This document shows, in pieces, positions 1,502 to 33,680 of a stretch of 33,680 nt of DNA. Source of the DNA: a virus. Lineage: Duplodnaviria > Caudoviricetes. The stretch covers positions 1 to 33,680 of the IMG/VR virus record IMGVR_UViG_3300012933_000217; one strand, written 5' to 3'. Both the position numbers and the translations under genes were made by a program. Within the stretch, counting starts at the first letter, position 1; the number at the start of each line of letters is the position of its first letter. A model generated the notes under the pieces. The model was not told where the DNA came from, ran no database searches, and saw only the letters and a program-made list of their open reading frames with translations.

Positions 1502-1760
1502 AGCTGTCATGATTTCAAAAAAGTATTACTTTTCATTTTTTATTCATCCCGTCAAAAATCCAATGACGCGTCATGACACGTGACACCAACTTTCCAAATA
1601 GGCTACGCGTTACGCATACGCCCCTCGCGTGCGCTCCTCGCGCCCCTTGTTCTCTATATTTTCCTATTTGTTGTATATATATAGTCATAGGTGTCATAGT
1701 GGTATATATATAGGAAAATCAAAGGGTTACGGAATGACACGTTAAGTGACACGTGACACC
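1495..1760. repeat. Putative replication origin: TGACAC/GTGTCA iterons around an AT-rich core
   Basis: TGACAC at 1574, 1581, 1735, 1747, 1754; GTGTCA at 1495, 1691. 14-bp direct repeat TGACACGTGACACC at 1574 and 1747. GTATATATATAG at 1673 and 1702. Inverted repeat ATTTTCCTAT/ATAGGAAAAT at 1658/1710. Confidence 0.65.
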
Positions 1761-4048
1761 TTGATGGGTGGAATACTCAACAAACGGGCAGTTCCCTTGC
1801 GATTATGTAAGTTCCCGTTCAGCTTTCTAATAATCATGCCTGCCTTAGTCACATCGGCCTTTGTTGGGTTTTGCTTGCCAACTGCCATAAGTGCCTCAGT
1901 AGGTGTCATCCAACGCCACTCAGATGCGGACGTCTTCCAATCAAGAGAATTGGTAATTAAGTCCTCAATCGGGTCAATAACTGTAAATTCCTCATTGTGC
2001 GTGTTCAGGGCGTCCAATTCCTCAGAAGTCAAGAACCAAGACTCGCCTGGCAGGTACAGTTGCTCGTAGATTTGAGCCCAGCACTGTTGCATATCAACGC
2101 CATGGTCGTGGTCTAGCGACTCGCATTCGATCGTCCAATACCGGCGGTTTCCTGTCTCGTCGTGCAGGTAATTCTTGGGGTTCACGCTGGCGAAAAATAC
2201 TGTCCGGCGGGCGTATGCGGACTCCTTGCGGGCGTAAGCTCTGCGCAATACATCTCGGTCGCTTGTCAGGAATGATTTAAGCGCGGCCACGTCTGATTTG
2301 CGGAACGTGGCATCGATCTCGCCGAGCTCCACCAGCCAGTTTGAGACGCACTTCATGACGCTGTCGCGGTCGTCTGGCCGCAGGAGCATCCCGTCCTTGA
2401 GCACGCCAAGGGTGTCCGGCACGAGCGTTTTGAACCACTTTGTCTTGCCAATGTACTGCGCGCCCTGAAATACCAAAACGCCATGGGCTGAAACGCCGTT
2501 TGGCCGAAATGCCGCCGCGACTGCGGAGATCAGCCAACGAGTCATAAAAGCGGTCTTCATGGCCGACACGCGCGGGTCTTTGGCCTCGTTCTTGGCTTTG
2601 ACGGTTGCTATGAGCTGTGAAAGGTGGTCTTGTCCATCCCATGGGCTGCTTGTAATCCATTGCGCCACAGGGTTGTACTGATTTTGGTCGGCAAGGTAGG
2701 TCACGAAGTCCGGCACGCGGTCGACGGGCATCTTAAACTTGGCGCACTCCGATATCAGCCATGAGAGGCTTGCGTTTTGCCTGTTGTCCATGCTGAAGCC
2801 AACGGTCGGGATGAGAATTTCCTCCTCCTTGCTGATGACGTTGTAGCGCACGATCACGTTCAGCCTGCGTAAGACTTCGTTCAGGTTCTCAATGGTTGCC
2901 AGCGGCTTGCCTTTGTCGTTGGTGTTTGGAAGCCAGCCGTAATAGTCCACCATCTGAGAGGCAGGCGCTGGGAGCGATTCAGTGGGTGCAGCGGCTACCG
3001 CTTGAGAGAACACGGCACCGCTGCTTGCGGGGTTGTTTGCTTTCTCAACCGCTGCTGGGCCGGTCGGAGGCAGGTCACTCGCCGCATTGACCTTTGGCTG
3101 ATTATCAGGTGCTGCAACGAATATTGCGCTGTTAATACGGGTTTTTACTGATTCGAGCGATTCGCTTGTGTGCAGGTCGTTGAAGTCCGTTCCTTTGCCG
3201 CGCTCGTCTTCCCAGCGTGGCGTGGCTATCTTTGCACGTATTTCTGTGGCCGCTTCAACCGCCGCCAAGATGCCAGGATTCCATGCCTCGCCTGCCTGCG
3301 GGTGGCTTGCGGGTCGCACCGTGAATGCGTCGTCGTCCGCCGCAATAATGATCTCGGCCTCGGGTAGCGCGGCGCGTATTTTCTTGGCGACCGTCTTGAT
3401 GTTGCCCGCGTTGAAGGCCACCACCACGCAATAGCCCGTTGCGGCTCGGATGGACATGCCTGTGGCCCAGCCCTCGCAGATTACGACCGGCCCGAGCTTG
3501 GATGGCTTGCCGAGCACCGTGTATGCGCCGGTGATGGGCGTGCCTTTCAGGAATTTCTTTTCCCCGTCTTCGGCGATGCGCTGGAGGCCAACAATAGCGC
3601 CAGGGCCATGGCGCAGTGGAATCAGCAGCTCGCCGTTTAATACTCGGGTGCATTCGGTGCCGACCTGCTTGCGCACGCCGTAGGGGTGGCTCATCTCTTG
3701 AGCCTGCTCCCACATTTGGGCCGATCTTGTTGCGCACTCAGCGCGCTCGCGTACTGCCTCGGCCTCGCGCTGGGCCTTGGCATCGTCCATTTTCTTGCGC
3801 CACGCTTGTTTTTCTTCGGGCGTGAACTCGCGTTTGTTCTTGGATGACCATGTGGCGTCGATCTGCGACCGGTTGCATCCGAAGCGGCCAGCGGGTCGCT
3901 CGTCATCGTGGAAAACATACCAACCGGCCTTGTCGCGCGGGTTGCCGTTTGAGCTGAACCGCTGGATTTTCCCATCGCCAATAATCTCGTCAGGGGGCGT
4001 CAAACCCGCTGCGGCAATGGCGTCTCTAAATTCTTGTTGTGCATTCAT
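1742..4048 (-). CDS. Primase-helicase: Toprim domain + VirE/VapE-like P-loop ATPase
   Basis: Toprim motifs ICEGWATG, AFNAGN, IIAADDD, TDFNDL. Walker A GAQYIGKT, then LVELGEID, RRAYAR, DETGNRRYW. Confidence 0.9.
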   Translation of the reverse strand: MNAQQEFRDAIAAAGLTPPDEIIGDGKIQRFSSNGNPRDKAGWYVFHDDERPAGRFGCNRSQIDATWSSKNKREFTPEEKQAWRKKMDDAKAQREAEAVRERAECATRSAQMWEQAQEMSHPYGVRKQVGTECTRVLNGELLIPLRHGPGAIVGLQRIAEDGEKKFLKGTPITGAYTVLGKPSKLGPVVICEGWATGMSIRAATGYCVVVAFNAGNIKTVAKKIRAALPEAEIIIAADDDAFTVRPASHPQAGEAWNPGILAAVEAATEIRAKIATPRWEDERGKGTDFNDLHTSESLESVKTRINSAIFVAAPDNQPKVNAASDLPPTGPAAVEKANNPASSGAVFSQAVAAAPTESLPAPASQMVDYYGWLPNTNDKGKPLATIENLNEVLRRLNVIVRYNVISKEEEILIPTVGFSMDNRQNASLSWLISECAKFKMPVDRVPDFVTYLADQNQYNPVAQWITSSPWDGQDHLSQLIATVKAKNEAKDPRVSAMKTAFMTRWLISAVAAAFRPNGVSAHGVLVFQGAQYIGKTKWFKTLVPDTLGVLKDGMLLRPDDRDSVMKCVSNWLVELGEIDATFRKSDVAALKSFLTSDRDVLRRAYARKESAYARRTVFFASVNPKNYLHDETGNRRYWTIECESLDHDHGVDMQQCWAQIYEQLYLPGESWFLTSEELDALNTHNEEFTVIDPIEDLITNSLDWKTSASEWRWMTPTEALMAVGKQNPTKADVTKAGMIIRKLNGNLHNRKGTARLLSIPPIKVSRVT

Positions 4049-4134
4049 ACCTGGCTCTCAAAACTGGCGAAAAAGTGGGGCAGCACTCGCCAGGGTCATG
4101 CCTTGTCGCCTGATAGCTAGTCAGGCCAAGCCCC
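4049..4134 (-). ncRNA. Candidate structured leader RNA (copy B) upstream of primase
   Basis: P1 GGGGC/GCCCC; P2 GCCTGA-CTAGCTA-TCAGGC; linker GACAAG; P3 GCAT/GTGC with loop GACCCTGGCGA, complementary to downstream TCGCCAG and GCCAGG. Confidence 0.6.
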
Positions 4135-4140
4135 GATCAA

Positions 4141-4149
4141 AATATACCA
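4141..4149 (-). promoter_or_regulatory. Extended -10 promoter (TGG-TATATT) ahead of the primase leader RNA
   Basis: TGnTATATT ends 6 nt before stem P1 of the leader. Confidence 0.5.
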
Positions 4150-4153
4150 TGGT

Positions 4154-4483
4154 TTATTGCGGTTTACGCAACACCCACAAAGCAGAATCTACCGATCGGA
4201 CGACGTCAGCAAGAGCGCCACGGTTGCGCATTGAGTTTAGAAACGCGTGCTGCGCTGCAGAGATTCGTCCCGTTTCCGTCTTGACTTCTAGGAAAAATGG
4301 CCGACGATCGTTGGTGAAGCCGAACAAATCACTGAAGCCAACCGGCAATCCAGACTTCACGGGCCGACCGTCTTTCGTGAAAAACAGTCCCACGTTCCCT
4401 CGAAACACCATGTGCCCATTGGCTGACAGCGCCAGCATGATTGATCGCATTAAATCTGCCTCGGATAGTTTTTTCTCAGTCAT
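4154..4483 (-). CDS. VRR-NUC domain nuclease
   Basis: SEADLM...FRGNVG...GFSDLFG...FLEVKTETGRISAAQ (PD-(D/E)xK pattern). Start re-called to ATG 4483 (ATGA overlap). Confidence 0.85.
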   Translation of the reverse strand: MTEKKLSEADLMRSIMLALSANGHMVFRGNVGLFFTKDGRPVKSGLPVGFSDLFGFTNDRRPFFLEVKTETGRISAAQHAFLNSMRNRGALADVVRSVDSALWVLRKPQ

Positions 4484-4719
4484 CGCACCGTCCACAAATT
4501 CTTAACCACCTCGGCCAACCGCAACCCAGCCGCCTCGCCACGTTTTTTCGTGATGCCATCAATGTACTCGCGCCGGTCGTACTTGCTTGGCAACGAGATC
4601 ACATGGCGAGCCTCGCACTCCTCTCGGTAATCCTCGCAGAAGTTGCAGACGTTGCGCCCGTCCGAGAGCGTCACCATCGGCCCTGTCTCGCATCGCTGGC
4701 ATCCAAGGCACTCAGACAC
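4480..4719 (-). CDS. Small Cys-rich hypothetical protein (possible Zn finger)
   Basis: CLGCQRC...CNFC...ECEAR. GTG start overlaps the helicase end and the stop overlaps the next start. Confidence 0.65.
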   Translation of the reverse strand: MSECLGCQRCETGPMVTLSDGRNVCNFCEDYREECEARHVISLPSKYDRREYIDGITKKRGEAAGLRLAEVVKNLWTVR

Positions 4720-6100: not shown

Positions 6101-7353
6101 TTTGGTGCCCCAGAGATTTCCAAGGCCAAGTTGATTCGTTCTCCAATCCATCGCACCACAGGCACAGCCCATGAGTTGCCAAGCGCCTTGTATCGAGGCC
6201 CATCAGGTGCTTCGGTGGCCTTACGCCATGGAATGTTTGTGTAGTTGTCAGGAAAGCCCTGCAAGCGCTCGCATTCGACTGGTGTTAGCCTGCGCACTGC
6301 CATTGACGCATAAACAGCATGGCTGTGCCCCTTAGTTAAAGTAAAAGAAGGGTCGCCAGCTTCACCAATGCCAAAACCTGTGCGTTCACCAAGCTGATTG
6401 TGACGAGTTGCAATCATTGTGTTGATCGGCATCGCCTGCATTAATGCGTTTTCGTCTCCATTATTTCGCCCAAGCGTAAACGCAAGGCCATCGCTTTCAC
6501 ATGGGTCTTGAGTTCCGTGAACAACAAAATCCTCAGTCTCGAAGTCATAGCGCATATTGCCGCCAGCCGTAAGACATTTGGCTGTTTGAACGGTCACGCA
6601 GAAGTCGAGTTCGTTGGCGTTTCCTGCGGGCCGATTGAGTCCGCCACCATTCGCAGTGAGCGTTCCAGCGCACTCGGTAACGTCTTTTTTCGTTTCTCGG
6701 CTCGGCGCAAAATCCCTGCGCAGGCCATCGAACTCAAAAAGAACCGAGGCGGGATCGAATCCGTTTCGAGAACTTGCGACAACAAACACACGGCGGCGGC
6801 GTTGGGCCACTCCGAAATATTGGGCGTCAAGAATGCGCCACGCGACTGCTCTTTTGGGGCCAAACACAGCACCAGCGTTCGACCATTTTTCCCCTGACGG
6901 GACAAGTGGCTCATCTTCTCCGGCAAGTCCTGCAAGAAAGCAGCCGAAGGCGTTATCTTTGGTGCTGAGAACCCCTGGGACGTTTTCCCAAAAAATGATG
7001 GCTGGCTCAAGTCCAATTCCATCTCTGGCAGTGTCAATTGCATTTGCTATCTCGCAAAAAGTTAGTGAAAGATTGCCGCGCTCATCGTCAAGCGACTTGC
7101 GTGTTCCGGCAACGCTGAATGCTTGGCATGGTGTGCCGCCGCAAAATAAATCTGGCGCTTCGACCTCTCCGCTTGAGATGCGGTTGGGCAAAGTTGTCAT
7201 GTCGCCAAGGTTAGGGACGTCAGGATAGTGGTGCGCAAGCACCGCACTTGGAAAGGGCTCAATCTCAGACAGCCAAGCGGCATTCCATCCAAGCGGATGC
7301 CAAGCCACGGATGCCGCCTCAATGCCTGAGCATACGGAGCCGAATTTAATCAT
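6097..7353 (-). CDS. DNA (cytosine-5) methyltransferase
   Basis: Motif I SVCSGIE, IV GTPCQAFS, VI WENVPG, VIII QRRRRVF, IX RRLTPVECERLQGFP, X RYKALGNS. Start re-called to ATG 7353. Confidence 0.93.
   Translation of the reverse strand: MIKFGSVCSGIEAASVAWHPLGWNAAWLSEIEPFPSAVLAHHYPDVPNLGDMTTLPNRISSGEVEAPDLFCGGTPCQAFSVAGTRKSLDDERGNLSLTFCEIANAIDTARDGIGLEPAIIFWENVPGVLSTKDNAFGCFLAGLAGEDEPLVPSGEKWSNAGAVFGPKRAVAWRILDAQYFGVAQRRRRVFVVASSRNGFDPASVLFEFDGLRRDFAPSRETKKDVTECAGTLTANGGGLNRPAGNANELDFCVTVQTAKCLTAGGNMRYDFETEDFVVHGTQDPCESDGLAFTLGRNNGDENALMQAMPINTMIATRHNQLGERTGFGIGEAGDPSFTLTKGHSHAVYASMAVRRLTPVECERLQGFPDNYTNIPWRKATEAPDGPRYKALGNSWAVPVVRWIGERINLALEISGAPK
6594..7043 (-). CDS. Nested alternative-frame ORF, M.EcoHK31I beta-polypeptide-like
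   Basis: 149-codon ATG-started ORF in the +1 frame inside the methyltransferase. Segment NISEWPNAAAVCLLSQVLET...RFFLS...ILRRAEKRKKTLPSALERSL matches my recollection of the beta polypeptide. Confidence 0.65.
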   Translation of the reverse strand: MQLTLPEMELDLSQPSFFGKTSQGFSAPKITPSAAFLQDLPEKMSHLSRQGKNGRTLVLCLAPKEQSRGAFLTPNISEWPNAAAVCLLSQVLETDSIPPRFFLSSMACAGILRRAEKRKKTLPSALERSLRMVADSIGPQETPTNSTSA

Positions 7354-7595
7354 TCGACCACGCAAATCAAATCCTCCGCACTCAGGCTCACGTTATGAGC
7401 CTTGGCGAGTGTTAAAACCCGATTTTGCAGGGCCGATGGGACGCAGCCGCCGGTGCCGCCTTCCTTTTTGGACTTGCGCCAACGGCTGATTGATGATGCG
7501 TTGCGGCCTAGCAATTTAGCAAGGGTGCGCACGCCGCCGAAGGCTTGGATGCACTTATCGGCAGGTGTTGTGGGTGTTGCGTTTTCTGTATTCAT
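7350..7595 (-). CDS. Cro/YdaS-like HTH regulator (81 aa)
   Basis: IQAFGGVRTLAKLLGRNASSISRWR...G.VP pattern. First gene of the leftward operon, with ATGA coupling to the methyltransferase. Confidence 0.8.
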   Translation of the reverse strand: MNTENATPTTPADKCIQAFGGVRTLAKLLGRNASSISRWRKSKKEGGTGGCVPSALQNRVLTLAKAHNVSLSAEDLICVVE

Positions 7596-7601
7596 GCGCA
7601 A

Positions 7602-7610
7602 AGTATAGCA
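7602..7610 (-). promoter_or_regulatory. Extended -10 promoter (TGC-TATACT) giving a probable leaderless mRNA
   Basis: TATACT lies 6 nt before ATG 7595 and there is no SD. Confidence 0.6.
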
Positions 7611-7660
7611 AAAAACGCAACGGGTTATCTGTGGAAAATAAGCAACGCAAATACATTTAT

Positions 7661-7691
7661 TTGCACTTAGTCGCATTTCTTGATGTATAGT
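7661..7691 (+). promoter_or_regulatory. Rightward early promoter TTGCAC-N19-TATAGT
   Basis: Lies in the divergent intergenic region ahead of SD GGAGAG and ATG 7735. The spacer is longer than optimal. Confidence 0.45.
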
Positions 7692-7700
7692 TGCGTTCAT

Positions 7701-7717
7701 TGCAACACGGTGTTGCA
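7701..7717. promoter_or_regulatory. 17-bp palindromic operator candidate TGCAACAC-G-GTGTTGCA
   Basis: Perfect 8-1-8 inverted repeat just downstream of the rightward -10. Related GTTGC/GCAAC sites at 7576, 7617, 7642 and 7690. Confidence 0.6.
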
Positions 7718-7734
7718 TTTAACCGGAGAGAGAG

Positions 7735-8356: not shown

Positions 8357-8570
8357 AGAAACGGGCGGAACAGCGTTCCCAGCGGAGACAGCATTTGAGT
8401 ATACGGAGGGCATGACCCTGCGCGATTACTTCGCGGCCAAGGCGATGCAGGCAGTCATCACGGACTGGCTTAACACTGGCGATATTTTTCAAGACGCGGA
8501 GATTCCTGAAGTTATCGCAAGAGATTGCTACCTTGTTGCAGACGCCATGATTAAGGAGAGAAACCAATGA
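8349..8570 (+). CDS. Phage hypothetical protein (GGxAFP...GMTLRDYFAAKAMQ family)
   Basis: Recurrent phage motif; SD AGGAG. Confidence 0.8.
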   Translation: MNKETGGTAFPAETAFEYTEGMTLRDYFAAKAMQAVITDWLNTGDIFQDAEIPEVIARDCYLVADAMIKERNQ

Positions 8571-14322: not shown

Positions 14323-14328
14323 TATAAT
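14323..14328 (+). promoter_or_regulatory. -10 box TATAAT ahead of the HNH leader RNA
   Basis: Perfect hexamer directly before the structured leader; no canonical -35. Confidence 0.5.
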
Positions 14329-14330
14329 TT

Positions 14331-14416
14331 GTTGTGGCTACCTTTAGCGGGGGAAAAGTAGATTCATTCACTACCTGCCACAACTTCTTTGAATGATTAA
14401 CCAAGAATGAGGTTAT
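14331..14416 (+). ncRNA. Candidate structured leader RNA (copy A) upstream of HNH
   Basis: P1 GTTGTGGC/GCCACAAC; P2 CCTT-TAGC-GGGG; linker GAAAA(G); P3 GTAG/CTAC with loop ATTCATTCA, complementary to downstream TGAATGA and GAATGA(GGT). Confidence 0.6.
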
Positions 14417-14911
14417 ATGTGGAAATCAATTCCTAATTTTGAAAACTACCTTTGTAGCATTAACGGCGAATTTTCTAGAAATGGAAAGTTGCTAAAACAA
14501 GCAAATCATGAAAAGGGCTACTTACACATAAGGCTCTATAAGTACGGAAAGCAATTTACATTTAGATCTCATCGTGTTGTGTATGAGACTTTTATTGGCC
14601 CAATAGAAAAAGGTCTAGAAATAAATCACAAGAATGGCATAAAGGACGATAACCGCTTATGCAACCTTGAGGCTTGCACTCATTCTGAAAACTTGATACA
14701 CGCACTAAAAGAAGGATTGCAAGTTCCAAAAAGAGGTGCTATGAATAAAAATAGCATACCAATTTACGGAGTATCAATTTCGACCAAAGAGAAGATACAT
14801 TTCTCATCGCAAGCAGAAGCAACAAGAAATGGATTCAATCAAGGAAACATACAAGCCGTGTTGTCTGGAAAAAGAAAACAACACGGCGGGTATAGGTGGT
14901 TTTACACGTAA
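14417..14911 (+). CDS. HNH homing endonuclease (NUMOD4-like N-terminus, NUMOD1-like C-terminus)
   Basis: WKSIPNFENY.CS..G, HRVVYETF...INHKNGIKDDNRLCNLE..THSEN, F.SQAEA...HGGYRW. AT-rich. Confidence 0.9.
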   Translation: MWKSIPNFENYLCSINGEFSRNGKLLKQANHEKGYLHIRLYKYGKQFTFRSHRVVYETFIGPIEKGLEINHKNGIKDDNRLCNLEACTHSENLIHALKEGLQVPKRGAMNKNSIPIYGVSISTKEKIHFSSQAEATRNGFNQGNIQAVLSGKRKQHGGYRWFYT

Positions 14912-18893: not shown

Positions 18894-21767
18894 TTAAATG
18901 GCAAGCTCGCCATATCCTTTTGCCACATAGTCAAAGGTTCGGCTGACTGCTGTTCCGCCCGAATTTCTGAATGTGATTGTAAAGCCAGACGCTAATTTCG
19001 AGGTTATTGAATAGTAATCGCCTTGAGCCAAATTTTGCGCAGCAATACCAATGGCAGGTGCTACCTTAAACGCTGGGCTGAACGTCACGGCGTAAGCTCC
19101 AGAGCCAGAAACAAGGTCGTTACCTGCTGCCACACGGTCTGGCATATCAATCGACACCGACAATGCAGAGACGGTCGGGCTTGAATCGCCATTTTGAGCC
19201 GTCAAAACGATCTTGAACTTAAACGCGCGGGCCTTGTAGTCGCCAACAAAGAATCGGCGGTAATCCGTCCAAACAGGCGTTCCTGCTGGGTCGTCTTCTG
19301 TAGTTGCGATGTAGAACTCGACGTTAGTGTCGCCGTAGGTGTTTGGGTCGCCATCAAACAGACCTGTGCGCTCGTCAAACAGCTCGGTTGGGTCATCGAA
19401 CAGGTTTACATAATCAACGCGGCCAACGGTGATATTCGAGGTCACGCGCGATGTGTAAACAGAGCCGAGATCAACTGTCTGGGCGAAATAGTAGGTGCCC
19501 TCTGTCGATGTTGTGCCTCCACCACCGTCGAAATCTCCATCAACATCGTCAAACAGGCCTGTGGCGCTGTCAAAGTCGATTGCCGTATCAAGAACAAGAA
19601 AACCCTCATCGTTGACGTGGCATTCTGTTTTAGAACCAGCGAACGATGGTGATTCCGTGACAGTTTCAATGGCGTTGAGGCCTTTTATGTCCTCAATGAT
19701 CGCCACGATCTCTGCCACGCCCATGGATTCGTTGCCTAGCTTGTCAATCGCCTTGATAAAGTAAGTGCCGGTCATGGCTGGAGCCACAGCAAAAACCCCA
19801 GGGCGAGGCACCTTCTCGACCAAGTCAATAGCGTCCGAATAAACCGCACCAGTTGTCAAACGCGAGTGACGGATTCGGTAATGGCTCAGATCAAGGTCGC
19901 CAACTGGGTTCCATGTCAGATAGGCTTGCGTGCCAACGATGTTGATTGAGAAGCCGGTCACATCCTCTGGTGGGGCTGTCTTGCCAACAACTCCATGAGA
20001 ATCCAAGGCCCATTCAGATCGAACGCCAAGCGTATTTATTGCCCTTGCGCGAACGTTATAAGTCGCACCGTCGATCACGTTGTAAAGCTCAAAAATGAAG
20101 CCCGTTGCTTGCCCTAAATTAATCCATTCTGTCGCGGTGCTGATCTTGGCCTGCACCTCATATCGGTTTTGAAATGATGCCGAGCCGGATAACGTGACCA
20201 CCAGCTTGGTGATGACCGTCTCTGCTGCTATCTCTAAAACGTCTGTGGTTGCCACTCCTGGCTCTGTCACGGTGAACGGGTCAGGCAGGTTGGTATTTGG
20301 GGCAATGTCAACAACCGTCTCGTCGCCAGAATTCCAATCGTAGACGCCGGATGCTGTCTCGCGCAATGTCAGGTTCACGATAGGCGTGGAGCCTGTTTCG
20401 GAGTTTGTGAACGAGAACGACCAGTCGATCACCTCGAAAACCTTTGAGCTCCAACCGTATCTGCTGAAATTTAAATTGACGTTGTCGCCTGGTTGCAGTT
20501 GAAACGCTTTCAGGTTGCAAGACAAGTTCACGCTAATCTGTTGGCGAGATTTCTCAAGGTCGATTTTTGCAAGGCGCTGGCAAGATGCCACCGAGGTCGT
20601 GAACGGGAATTGAATGTCCTTCCAGATTTTCTCGTTGTCCTGCGAGGTATAGAGCGCATTGGTGACCGGAGGGAAGCTGCTTAGTTGGTAAAGCGCGTCC
20701 GGCTCCGAATAAGTGCCCTTGACAGCGTTGAAAATATCTCGGCGTGATTGCGAGCCTTGAACGGATACGGCACCAACCAGATCATCGTCATCAAGCGTGA
20801 CCGTCGGCGAGCGATATTCTGCCACCTTCAAAGTCCACTTGCCGCCAATATATGCAAGGCTTCCACCGCAAGCAGTGAGCATCTTCGACAGGATTTCTTT
20901 TGGCTTCTCGCCGGAGCTGAAAGCGCCGTTGATCGTGTAGCGTTTCTCTGTGCCGCCTTCTGCAAGCGTCACGTCCTCGTCGCAAATTTCAGCCGCCGCA
21001 ATGAATGAATCGTTGTCAATCTCGTCATCTGTCGCGGCAAAACCGTAATCAACGTCCGTCAGGTAATCGCGAATGCAAAGCGCCGCATTTGTTGAATATG
21101 CAGTTGTGGTATCGCGCGGGTCGTAGACCTTCTTGCCTTGGATTTCTGCCGTGACGTTTGGAAGACCTTGCGGGAATTTGTCAGCGTCGAAAACAAGCTT
21201 TACGCCAAGTGTGGCGATACCTTTGAACTGAAATGCTGACGCCGCAGTGCCAGAAAACAACTCCATGGCAGATTGCGTTGCTGTGCCTGTGGCGTAATCG
21301 AAATTGATCGCGCTTGTGCTGCCTTTATAGTTGATCGTGTAGATGCCACCGCTTGGGGTGAGCGCAAATTTCTCGTCGGCAACATAGACGTTTTGGACGC
21401 TGTCGATCTCATGTCCAGCCATGGCGATTGCCATATACATGGTTTCGTTTTTTGAGCCAGCAGTCTCCATGTGCACGATCGTCCCGCCAACGCGCGATTT
21501 GCCATAGACGATCATTGCATCGCCTGCCGCCTGCCGAGACGATACGAGCTGGCCTCTCAATTGTGAGCCAAGGTCAAAATCCTTGGGCGTTTCTGCTAAA
21601 ACCTGAGAGACAGCAGACGCAGCGCCCGCCATGATTGCTGCAGTACTCGCAAACGCCGTAAATGTTTGGCCCGCTGAGATTGACGCTGGGCCGAGATAGT
21701 AAACAGCCGCCGCAACAACGACGGCCGTAACGACCGACTTGAAAACATTACTTAGACTGAATCCCAT
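18894..21767 (-). CDS. Central tail tip / host-specificity protein (gpJ-like, FN3 domains)
   Basis: IVYGKSRVGG, GKKVYDPR, NAALCIRDYL, YNVRARAIN.LG..S.W, YFIKAIDKLGNES. Position after hub genes. Confidence 0.85.
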   Translation of the reverse strand: MGFSLSNVFKSVVTAVVVAAAVYYLGPASISAGQTFTAFASTAAIMAGAASAVSQVLAETPKDFDLGSQLRGQLVSSRQAAGDAMIVYGKSRVGGTIVHMETAGSKNETMYMAIAMAGHEIDSVQNVYVADEKFALTPSGGIYTINYKGSTSAINFDYATGTATQSAMELFSGTAASAFQFKGIATLGVKLVFDADKFPQGLPNVTAEIQGKKVYDPRDTTTAYSTNAALCIRDYLTDVDYGFAATDDEIDNDSFIAAAEICDEDVTLAEGGTEKRYTINGAFSSGEKPKEILSKMLTACGGSLAYIGGKWTLKVAEYRSPTVTLDDDDLVGAVSVQGSQSRRDIFNAVKGTYSEPDALYQLSSFPPVTNALYTSQDNEKIWKDIQFPFTTSVASCQRLAKIDLEKSRQQISVNLSCNLKAFQLQPGDNVNLNFSRYGWSSKVFEVIDWSFSFTNSETGSTPIVNLTLRETASGVYDWNSGDETVVDIAPNTNLPDPFTVTEPGVATTDVLEIAAETVITKLVVTLSGSASFQNRYEVQAKISTATEWINLGQATGFIFELYNVIDGATYNVRARAINTLGVRSEWALDSHGVVGKTAPPEDVTGFSINIVGTQAYLTWNPVGDLDLSHYRIRHSRLTTGAVYSDAIDLVEKVPRPGVFAVAPAMTGTYFIKAIDKLGNESMGVAEIVAIIEDIKGLNAIETVTESPSFAGSKTECHVNDEGFLVLDTAIDFDSATGLFDDVDGDFDGGGGTTSTEGTYYFAQTVDLGSVYTSRVTSNITVGRVDYVNLFDDPTELFDERTGLFDGDPNTYGDTNVEFYIATTEDDPAGTPVWTDYRRFFVGDYKARAFKFKIVLTAQNGDSSPTVSALSVSIDMPDRVAAGNDLVSGSGAYAVTFSPAFKVAPAIGIAAQNLAQGDYYSITSKLASGFTITFRNSGGTAVSRTFDYVAKGYGELAI

Positions 21768-27037: not shown

Positions 27038-29281
27038 TTAAGCGATATCAGCGTCGCCGTAGCAGAACGACACGGCGTTGCGCAAGGCAATGTCCACGTC
27101 CTGCAATGCAACCACGCGAACGGTGCCGCTGGTGCTGTTGCTGTAAGGGTCAACGGTCAGGTCGAGGCCAGACCAGAAGCCGATCAACAAGTCAGCAAAG
27201 TTGCCAAAGAACACGTCACCGGCGGTGACTTGGTTTGAAACTTCTGTGCGGTAGCCGTTCACAGTGTTGCCTGGTTCCCACACGAATTGACCAGCGGATG
27301 TGCTGGACTTCTCTGTGGTTTTCAACGAGCCGCGTTGTGCTGGGTTGAACAGATAGCTCATTGTGCCGATATCTGCGTTGTCAGCGGCAACTTCAGACTC
27401 CATTGCGACCAATTCAGCGAATGTGGGCGTAGTGGCTGCGAAGTCCTTGGTGTTCACGCCAGAGGTGGCCTTCACGCCTGTGGGCTGGTTGTTTGAGCCT
27501 GTACCGTACAAGGCAGCGGCGTCGATTGCCAAGGCGATGACTTGAGCCAAGTCACGGCGCACAAAGCTCTCAATGTCGATGCTCGACTGCAACATCAGCT
27601 TGCGGCTGAAATCGGTGTAAGCGCCCACGGTCTTTGGAGACATGGTCACTTGGGCCAGAGTTTGTTGGCTCTCTGTTGGAGCGCCAGACTCAGCCACCCA
27701 GTAAGCAGTCGCGCCAGCGGATTGCTTGGGGATTGCCACGTTGCCGACCAAGCCGTTCATTACGGTTGCGCCAGCGCGTTGCACCACAGAGCGATTGCGC
27801 AACATTTCGATGAACGAATCGGCCATCAAGTCAGTTGCAACGGTGTAGCCACCAGCGTTGGATGTGCCAACAGTCAGGTCACGCTTGCCGAAGATCACGT
27901 CGTTTGGCACGAAGATGCCTTGTGCTGCGCGGCCATAAGTCTTCACGGCTGCTTCAGATACTTCACGCTCGAAAGCGGCTGCATCTTGTGCGCGTTTGTC
28001 TTGTGGGTTAGCCATGGCGTTGATGGCCTTCAAGAAGCTGAATTGACGAACTTCTTTTTTGGTCAAACCGATTTCGGCTTGGATGGGAGCGTCAAAAGCG
28101 CGGCTTTCAACGGCAACGGTTGCGGAGTTTTCCATTTTCGTGTCCTTTCTTTCTGTCTCTGTGACTTGAGTATGTTGTGCCACTTCGACAGGGGTTTCGG
28201 TAATTTGTGGTTTTTCTACCACAGCTTCAGAGGTTGTATTCACGCTCTCGCTTCGACCAACGCCAACGGACGTGTCGGCAGGGATAGAAACGATCGACGC
28301 TTCAACAGGTCGCCAAGCAGTCGCGCGGTATGTTTTGCCATCAGCCTCTTTGACCATCTTGGAGATGGAGTAGCCGATAGAAACATTGCCACGGATTTGA
28401 TCGGCAACGTCTCCGTACACCTCCGAAGCCAATGCGCTCTTACCGAAACGCACTGTCGCCCGCAACTTGCGAGCCGAGCCATCGAGGGATACAGATTCGA
28501 TCACGCCAATTTGCTGTGACGGGTCATGGTCAAGCAATAAAGGCGCACGACCTGAGTTCATAAACTCGAGGTCAATTGAGTCGGAATTGTGGTCTAGGAT
28601 TTCGTCGCCATAGTAACGAGAAACAGGCGATTCGCTTGAAATAGACATTGACACGCGGCGGTCTGTCTCGGAATCAATGCGAGCTTCCATGGCGTCTGCG
28701 CGTGTCAGGCGTTCAGTTGATTTGCGCATGTCGTCCATCTCGACTTCGACCTCTTCGACAACATCCGCTTCGGTGGCAGTCTCTGCTTCAGCGGCCATCA
28801 CGGTCGCTTCTGCTTCGGCTTGTGCCTCAATGATTTCGGACAAGTCTTCTGTGTCAACGTGAACAGAAAGGCTCACCACTGCGCGTTCTTCGTTTGTCAT
28901 AACCGTTCCTTCAGGTTTTGCAGATTCTAACAACTCATTCGATGCTTGAGTATTTTTTTCAGCCGATCTGTCGCCTTGGATTTTTTCATACTCTCGCTCT
29001 GCCCAAGCGCGACCAGGGTCGCCGCCCCACAAAGCCCACGCGATGCGACCGTTTGACGGGTAGCCTTCCTCGCCAGGACGAAAGCCCTCAGCCTCTTTGT
29101 CAACCTCGTGACGCGCGAAATAGCTGACCATGCGGCCAACCGTCTCGTCCGAAAGATCGCGGCCATTCACAATATCTCGCGCCCGAGCGATGCCGACCTC
29201 AGTACCGCCACGGCCAAACTCATCGCGCCAATCAAGGCCGCGCTGAGCCTCTTCCTTCATCGCTTCATTCGGTACTGGCAT
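27038..29281 (-). CDS. Fusion: ~105-aa unknown domain + HK97-type prohead protease + major capsid protein
   Basis: Protease motifs EILDH, APLLLDHD..QQIG, NVSIGY, W.P.E.S.VSIPAD..VGVGR. Capsid motifs GGYTV, AYWVAE, FFGNF, DPYS...G.VRV...QDVD. Confidence 0.9.
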   Translation of the reverse strand: MPVPNEAMKEEAQRGLDWRDEFGRGGTEVGIARARDIVNGRDLSDETVGRMVSYFARHEVDKEAEGFRPGEEGYPSNGRIAWALWGGDPGRAWAEREYEKIQGDRSAEKNTQASNELLESAKPEGTVMTNEERAVVSLSVHVDTEDLSEIIEAQAEAEATVMAAEAETATEADVVEEVEVEMDDMRKSTERLTRADAMEARIDSETDRRVSMSISSESPVSRYYGDEILDHNSDSIDLEFMNSGRAPLLLDHDPSQQIGVIESVSLDGSARKLRATVRFGKSALASEVYGDVADQIRGNVSIGYSISKMVKEADGKTYRATAWRPVEASIVSIPADTSVGVGRSESVNTTSEAVVEKPQITETPVEVAQHTQVTETERKDTKMENSATVAVESRAFDAPIQAEIGLTKKEVRQFSFLKAINAMANPQDKRAQDAAAFEREVSEAAVKTYGRAAQGIFVPNDVIFGKRDLTVGTSNAGGYTVATDLMADSFIEMLRNRSVVQRAGATVMNGLVGNVAIPKQSAGATAYWVAESGAPTESQQTLAQVTMSPKTVGAYTDFSRKLMLQSSIDIESFVRRDLAQVIALAIDAAALYGTGSNNQPTGVKATSGVNTKDFAATTPTFAELVAMESEVAADNADIGTMSYLFNPAQRGSLKTTEKSSTSAGQFVWEPGNTVNGYRTEVSNQVTAGDVFFGNFADLLIGFWSGLDLTVDPYSNSTSGTVRVVALQDVDIALRNAVSFCYGDADIA

Positions 29282-33203: not shown

Positions 33204-33645
33204 TTAGCGCCTCGTTTATTGATTCTTCCAAAATGGAACGAACTTCTTTTATGTCTTTTGCCGTAAAAATTTGAGCACTCAGCCTTGATGGCAATGACAG
33301 CATTTTTGCTTTGAAGTGACTTAACTGCTCCCCAATTTCATCCGCCACTTTGTCAATTTCAATGACTGCGCCTTGCTCTTTCAAAAGCTCAAGCTCTGCC
33401 AGCCCAGCCTCCGCCGCCATCTTTCTGCGCTTGCCTTCATCAAGGTCAATTAATGTTTGATTTCCCGCAACATTGGCAACTTGCCTTTTTTCCATCCACT
33501 CAATGACCTTCGCCGTGTCATAAAGCTGTCCTGCGCGGCCTCTTCCCCTCTGGTGAATCGGGAAATCATGCTGTTTCTGCATATCGGTCAGCCAGTTTTC
33601 TGACCTTCCAATAATTCCAGAAAGCTGTGTTTTGTTGACGATCAT
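33121..33645 (-). CDS. terS: Terminase small subunit, gpNu1-like
   Basis: VNKTQLSGIIG.S N-terminal HTH, YDTAKVIEW, coiled coil AEAGLAELEL. Overlaps the terL start. Confidence 0.88.
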   Translation of the reverse strand: MIVNKTQLSGIIGRSENWLTDMQKQHDFPIHQRGRGRAGQLYDTAKVIEWMEKRQVANVAGNQTLIDLDEGKRRKMAAEAGLAELELLKEQGAVIEIDKVADEIGEQLSHFKAKMLSLPSRLSAQIFTAKDIKEVRSILEESINEALNEVRGIGFTDATGESEEEDSGAIPEQT

Positions 33646-33680
33646 ATAACCTGAACTTATGAATAGGCGTGAATTAATAC

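Follow-up and report, generated by a model that had tools for sequence, protein, structure and literature searches.

A phage primase leader with a conserved three-way junction and one loop complementary to two downstream sites

The P1 C4 RNA derives from a phage leader, has two complementary targets and takes part in the control of replication or antirepressor genes. The int-alpA motif reportedly originates from a survey of 224 motifs. It is widespread among phages and typed as 'Gene; sRNA' in Rfam (RF02996), and in print we found it only as a table row and a gene-order label, with no function. P4 CI is described as a processed RNA that acts in trans, has one upstream and one downstream target and causes termination (PMC4825925). 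The repZ pseudoknot is described as activating, as needing a leader peptide and as competing with an antisense RNA (PMC4705826). For the MS2 maturation gene, translation is described as timed by folding (PMC6582335), a precedent for the reading that we favor below.

We analyzed a window of 33,680 nucleotides, which is an entire IMG/VR virus record (IMGVR_UViG_3300012933_000217, 87% complete) with lambda-type head and tail genes. On its minus strand, the gene at 1742–4048 encodes a 768-residue primase-helicase with Toprim_3 and VapE-like domains (PHROG 2249, DNA primase). The leader at 4049–4149, here called copy B, precedes its ATG at 4048 and putatively regulates it. An earlier note on this DNA had described the leader as a two-state pseudoknot switch, and all the elements that it named, with both complementarities, are present on the minus strand where it had placed them. 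The three-way junction core (4077–4134) is closed by P1 (GGGGC 4134–4130 with GCCCC 4081–4077), followed by J1/2 (UUG, 4129–4127), P2 (GCCTGA 4126–4121 with TCAGGC 4113–4108, loop CUAGCUA), J2/3 (GACAA, 4107–4103) and a P3 of 5 bp (4102–4098 with 4086–4082). The linker before P3 had been given as GACAAG. GACAA is indeed unpaired, but the last G is in the first base pair of P3 (G-U in six, A-U in two, G-C in two and C-G in one of 11 homologues), and P3 therefore abuts P1 without a linker. The P2 loop (4114–4120) contains the palindrome UAGCUA. Other leaders have GAUC there, and UCGCU variants, which break the palindrome, led us to reject such palindromes as dimer signals.

The P3 loop, GACCCUGGCGA (4087–4097), is the pairing loop. 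Its 3′ part matches site 1 (UCGCCAG, 4064–4070) over 7 bp, and it also matches site 2 (GCCAGG, 4050–4055) over 6 bp, at −7 to −2 of the AUG. We take site 1 as the putative parking (ON) site and site 2 as the putative blocking (OFF) site. As the note had held, the two pairings exclude each other, because the loop bases CUGGC are common to both. The predicted duplex energies, which ignore pseudoknot geometry, are −12.3 kcal/mol for site 1 and −12.5 kcal/mol for site 2. When the 40 nt after P1 were shuffled 20,000 times with dinucleotides preserved, the 7-bp match alone arose in 103 shuffles, and none gave both the 7-bp and the 6-bp match. The patch GAGAG (4055–4059), which had been taken for the Shine-Dalgarno (SD) sequence, is weak (−2.7 kcal/mol; 34 of 52 gene starts are stronger). 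It is not kept in homologues, and we rejected it as a conserved SD.

Upstream DNA was compared for 21 of 31 primase loci. Directly upstream of the primase, 11 of these carry this leader, four a different-looking junction and six neither; three of the last six have a canonical int-alpA copy further upstream, ahead of an inserted gene. In the 11-row alignment of homologues, 99.6% of cells pair. P1 is invariant, and both sides have changed in seven of 23 pairs, all in P2 (four of six pairs) and P3 (three of five). The covariation score of this alignment was reached in 0 of 500 shuffles, a count that cannot be taken as a probability because the rows are related. Site 1 is paired in 77 of 77 cells, with one pair varying from A-U to G-U, and site 2 is paired in 96.9% of cells in close homologues. 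Within the group to which the window belongs the loop does not vary, and its sites therefore change only by wobbles and shifts of register. In this primase group, site 2 lies one base from the AUG and the SD is weak, unlike in the rest of the class described below. By single-sequence folding, the three-way junction of the core is 2.2 kcal/mol above the minimum free energy, the z-scores (−1.0 to +0.8) are unremarkable, and nested folds in which P1 and P3 are opened and the loop pairs with site 1 score better than the junction. The structural case therefore rests on covariation and comparison.

No second copy of the leader was found by sequence in repeat finding, blastn or nhmmer. Against cultured phages, blastn of the leader gave only 24-nt matches (E 5), and the leader was not matched in the two cultured-phage primase neighborhoods scanned, of four. 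Among the 120 GTDB matches listed, of about 390 pattern matches, one (L324) passed the stem filter, without matching sites.

Pattern scans for this junction (B type) gave 114 unique matches, from which 46 were dropped for a poor P2 and six for having no P1 or P3. The set kept comprises 62 unique leaders with 37 distinct loops, still counting L411, which is probably a chance match. Except in one scan, the patterns fixed letters in P1, the junction and the P2 loop and left the P3 loop and the sites free. Conservation in the fixed parts is thus partly built in, and the test of loop and site covariation is fair. A first site of at least 6 bp was found for 31 of 37 loops, against 2.6% of 2,892 swapped pairs, and a second site of at least 5 bp likewise for 31 of 37, against 0.8% of 2,892 swapped pairs; for two of the 37 the second site is missing. 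The note had named loop and target covariation in homologues as a check; covariation is found in P2 and P3 among the 11 homologues and between loop and sites across the class, which leaves the proposal unrefuted. What stands of the proposed switch is the junction, the loop covarying with two sites, the place of the second site in the ribosome footprint and a −10 box at a fixed distance; the part played by GAGAG as SD does not.

The two pairings are balanced and offset across the class. For 35 loops, the energy difference between the two sites has a median of +0.2 kcal/mol; site 1 is preferred in 16 and site 2 in 19, and the two are within 2 kcal/mol in 23. In 30 of 35, site 1 extends closer than site 2 to the 3′ end of the loop (five equal, none less), and in 25 of 35 it is site 2 that extends closer to the 5′ end, so that each is left with a short toehold. 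In 27 of 35 the end of site 2 falls 6–9 nt before the start codon, where an SD usually stands; 14/14 B-type and 66/85 canonical int-alpA leaders have site 2 between −13 and +3. At the level of sequence, a conserved three-way junction, both complementarities, their mutual exclusion, near-equal predicted strength and offset registers are established; the leader is real and conserved, and it is probably regulatory.

The element had been regarded as a primase leader, yet the same element also precedes HNH nucleases and DNA methylases. Among 31 proteins behind B-type leaders, 13 match HNH endonucleases, eight primases or primase-polymerases, two only an unnamed family that those also match, four DNA methyltransferases and four nothing. 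This distribution bears on the idea of a DNA-level element, in which the primase would recognize a single-strand initiation signal or an origin hairpin. The leader directly adjoins the primase gene, as this idea would have it, but the same cassette stands before HNH and methylase genes, the spacing to the −10 box and to the start codons is fixed, and P2, P3 and site 1 retain G-U wobbles among the 11 homologues. We regard a DNA-level role as scarcely credible. In L214 and L440, about 22 extra nt separate P1 from site 1 and both sites are kept further down, which makes a natural test of linker length. In L381 (701–730, minus strand), a B-type junction is joined to a loop and an SD-overlapping site typical of canonical leaders, and this suggests, from its sequence, module exchange or common descent.

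The window also contains copy A, a leader of the same design without alignable sequence. Copy A (14331–14412, plus strand) is a canonical int-alpA RNA, matching RF02996 at 14331–14395 with 47.8 bits (cut-off 35.8). Its loop AUUCAUUCA (14362–14370), site 1 (14390–14396) and site 2 (14405–14410) are followed by an HNH endonuclease gene with HNH_3 and NUMOD-like domains (14417–14911), all on the plus strand; site 2 overlaps the SD GAGG (14409–14412), and TATAAT lies before the leader (14323–14328, plus strand). A cmscan of the whole window against Rfam missed this 47.8-bit match, which a direct int-alpA search found. Negatives of large Rfam scans are therefore unreliable, and we rescanned copy B on 301 nt. 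Large scans of this kind under-report the int-alpA family.

In the 301-nt scan, which covers the cmscan that the note had proposed, copy B had no match in Rfam at E ≤ 10, nor was it matched in the genome-wide int-alpA search; it thus lies below the int-alpA gathering cut-off of 35.8 bits. By the defining model test, copy B is not an int-alpA member. RF02996 also gave no B-type match in 10 further records, with one 8.2-bit fragment elsewhere. We built two models, one (R1) from 24 B-type and the other (R2) from 58 canonical-type leaders. With filters off, R2 does not find copy B, and it finds none of the B-type leaders among 31 loci; R1 finds no canonical leader in 54 loci and scores copy A at 8.3 bits (E 2.8). 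The junction letters are UUG, GACRA and none in B type, whereas they are UA, GAAAA and CU in canonical int-alpA, J3/1 being absent in the former and CU in the latter. P2 has 6 bp in B type and 3–4 in the canonical type. No junction intermediate between the two classes was found among the leaders compared.

The two classes nevertheless have much in common. Copy B and int-alpA share a three-stem junction (P1, P2 and P3), a purine-rich 5-nt J2/3 and a variable P3 loop, and the B class shares with int-alpA a pyrimidine-rich linker, a phage setting and the logic of one loop and two sites. Both have the P2-loop pentamers UAGCU and UCGCU, and canonical leaders stand before primases 61–74% identical to that of the window, in the same position as the B-type leaders. 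The shared pentamers and the equivalent positions before homologous primases suggest that the class of copy B is likely a sister class of int-alpA. The earlier note had been reminded of P4 CI and P1 c4; the known family that is relevant here is int-alpA, of which copy A is a member and copy B likely a sister. The Rfam structure line for int-alpA, as given by cmscan, has no pseudoknot and ends at site 1. This format cannot show pseudoknots, and one may have been recorded by the Rfam curators.

Three of the four different-looking primase leaders mentioned above score 34.0–35.7 bits with int-alpA, just below the cut-off of 35.8. A canonical core pattern read from those loci listed at least 120 loci, with about 1,100 stretches estimated in IMG/VR, and 17 of 20 loci tested pass the int-alpA cut-off. 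Ninety unique canonical leaders were parsed, and 19 loci did not parse. The loop has a match of at least 6 bp in 70 of the 90 (4.7% in swaps) and a second match of at least 5 bp in 63 (1.7% in swaps). The proteins behind canonical leaders (n = 48) match HNH or GIY-YIG nucleases (12), DUF1376 (7), HTH_36 (2) and other families (4), and 23 match nothing. A second junction class with this two-site design is an argument that selection maintains the logic of one loop and two sites.

Several canonical loci have features of their own. Those at L047, L059, L065 and L134 start directly after a tRNA-like 3′ end (tRNA matches were confirmed at L047 and L065), so that their 5′ end could arise by tRNA processing. 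In a subgroup (L053, L062, L064, L090 and kin), site 2 apparently runs past a bulged U into the SD. A methylase-like gene is inserted between leader and primase in L012, L015 and L018, where the leader now heads a two-gene unit. At the single locus L076 there are two int-alpA copies, separated by about 590 nt (607–679 and 1193–1262).

An extended −10 element, TG-n-TATATT (4149–4141, minus strand), lies 6 nt before P1, as had been noted, and is the predicted promoter of the leader. Among B-type loop classes, TAnnnT stands 9–13 nt before the junction in 30/36, against a background of 3%, and the TGn extension of the −10 is present in 10/36. A consensus promoter scan requiring a −35 did not list the −10 box of this leader. 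The likely −35 is TTGCGT at 4171–4166 (minus strand), within the inverted repeat TTGCG-N5-CGCAA (4157–4171), a possible operator. This repeat is the sole perfect match in the window, where it is not enriched (six matches with at most one mismatch, 3.2 expected). Of 16 B-type promoters, seven have a TTGC(G)/(C)GCAA repeat at this position (the window, L001, L004, L006, L025, L026 and L184). TTGCG/CGCAA-like words also cluster at 7600–7720, in the divergent intergenic region before a Cro-like gene (7350–7718), and may be operators. The VRR-NUC endonuclease gene upstream of the leader (4154–4495, minus strand) has its stop codon inside the promoter region. We infer that the leader has a promoter of its own and that its RNA begins at about P1. 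Ten sequencing runs were listed, all with contigs containing less than 0.1 of the words, and eight were compared. In four runs of one study, a relative's contigs extend across the leader and further upstream; they cannot tell where a transcript starts or ends or on which strand it lies, and they may be DNA. In one run, a contig piece over 3933–4151 differs in 3/219 letters, against 53/416 deeper in the gene.

We favor, at a probability of roughly 55%, the reading that the leader acts in cis as a translational throttle, with site 1 as the ON and site 2 as the OFF state. Site 1 would be transcribed first and would pair with the loop first, stacked on P3, leaving the primase start free. Site 2 would then invade through the free 5′ bases of the loop, and strand exchange would place the loop on site 2, covering the bases just before the start codon. 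Even with no outside signal, each transcript would thereby be open to translation only briefly or for a limited share of the time. The MS2 maturation leader may share the principle that folding order gives a translation window; as described, it differs in being from an RNA phage, in its unrelated structure and in its trap, which is a local hairpin and not a decoy site for a loop. A cassette of promoter, junction and two sites recurs before primases, homing endonucleases and methylases, for which the phage would need dose limits.

Different loops would keep copies within one genome from cross-talk, and cross-pairing is indeed predicted to be weak (loop A with the primase start −1.2 kcal/mol, loop B with the HNH start −4.4 kcal/mol). 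Loop B, however, pairs with the start region of the tail gene at 18894–21767 at −13.4 kcal/mol, slightly better than with its own start region, and a 6–7-bp match therefore means little without proximity and covariation.

With near-equal energies, pure equilibrium gives only a few-fold effect, so some input may exist. A sensor would supply it, in that a metabolite, an ion or a protein, perhaps a host factor or the product of the primase or nuclease gene itself, would bind the junction and the P2 loop and shift the loop between the sites, as a translational riboswitch or an autoregulatory leader. The balanced energies and the toehold-like offsets suit a triggered switch, a fit nearly as good as that of the throttle. 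UUG co-occurs with GACRA in 36/36 structured B-type leaders, although the pattern permitted GAARA, and the P2-loop pentamer is restricted to UGAUC, UAGCU and UCGCU, partly by search design. This conservation could be purely structural, however, the same logic is run by two junction classes, and the regulated proteins have unrelated folds, which leaves no common autoregulator. We consider a sensor doubtful, although it is the main rival. Somewhat more doubtful still is the specific proposal that copy B is an uncatalogued, programmable, riboswitch-like phage sensor whose junction would read a signal and drive exchange of the loop between two near-equal pseudoknots. Were it true, the two junction classes would read different inputs, and variable loops would let one phage run separate primase and homing endonuclease switches.

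The cis throttle also has to be compared with the known replication leaders. The leader is not c4, CI or repZ, and neither the C4 RNA model (RF01695) nor the PK-repZ model (RF01087) matched it. As in ColIb-P9 repZ, a leader loop pairs beside the initiation region of a replication gene through a GGCG/CGCC seed (PMC4705826). In repZ, an SD-masking hairpin is opened by the pseudoknot and the antisense RNA is countertranscribed, whereas here there are two sites in cis. A repZ-type activating pseudoknot, whose loop pairing would open an inhibitory hairpin so that ON and OFF are reversed or both pairings activate, would be in keeping with control of a replication initiator through the same 4-mers adjoining a weak initiation signal (PMC4705826). 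In prediction, binding of site 1 lifts the openness of the start region little, from 0.48 to 0.55, and the gain exceeds 0.1 in only 4/14 B-type and 12/85 canonical leaders, which argues against such activation. Site 2 at −7 to −2, the missing PK-repZ match and the absence of GGCG from many of the 37 loops point the same way. A conserved antisense promoter was rejected, as an antisense −10 occurs in at most 3/36 B-type loop classes at any distance. We hold activation of this type to be very unlikely.

With P4 CI and Gifsy-1 IsrK, the leader shares its nature as a phage leader-derived RNA with two complementary targets and its association with replication or antirepressor genes (PMC4825925). The present leader differs from CI in having one loop with two mutually exclusive targets, both downstream. 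Feedback in trans would require a short junction RNA, made by termination or processing, whose free loop binds site 2 of other transcripts and so counts copies, the cis loop meanwhile being parked at site 1; by analogy, CI, C4 and IsrK would be its counterparts. P1 is closed at the likely 5′ end, the variable loops could serve as specificity codes, the two copies of this genome differ in their loops, and trans-acting precedents have been described (PMC4825925). On the other hand, there is no C4 match, and an RNA beginning at P1 leaves no fitting target upstream; on the minus strand, the closest TCGCCAG in that direction is at 8482. A single 6–7-bp contact would be short for a stable duplex in trans. 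A terminator-like U tract follows P1 in only 13/36 B-type and 22/56 canonical loop classes, by which we rejected a universal terminator there, and together with the missing antisense promoter this weakens trans models of the CI and IsrK type. Trans feedback appears unlikely.

We found no printed description of the two-site design in literature searches, judged from titles and the starts of abstracts. The name int-alpA does not occur in the main text of PMC5737381, and its supplement may hold the pseudoknot or the B class. The B class may also be among the 8,495 candidates of PMC10690425. What appears to be new, from comparison of the leaders, is a second junction class with the same two-site design that the int-alpA model does not capture. 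The analysis also adds the occurrence of this class before primases, nucleases and methylases that are unrelated to one another, the statistics on balance and register, and a genome with one leader of each class. The orphan 'sRNA' int-alpA thus becomes open to testing as a regulator in cis of primases, homing endonucleases and methylases. The element is about 90 nt long, exact compensatory mutants exist in nature, and the phage carries both classes with different loops. If the throttle is true, it would show how phages ration replication and selfish-nuclease proteins, and it would be a small, re-codable translation switch.

Other regions of the window contain minor features. The sn3060 snoRNA match over the start of the small terminase gene (33586–33651, minus strand; 33.8 bits, below the cut-off of 45) is probably due to chance. 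The AT-rich gap 3′ of the primase gene (1540–1730) has several TGTCA/TGACA repeats and purine-pyrimidine runs and is a candidate replication origin. The minus-strand gene at 27038–29281 encodes a 747-residue fusion of a prohead protease and a major capsid domain, with an unnamed N-terminal domain in front.
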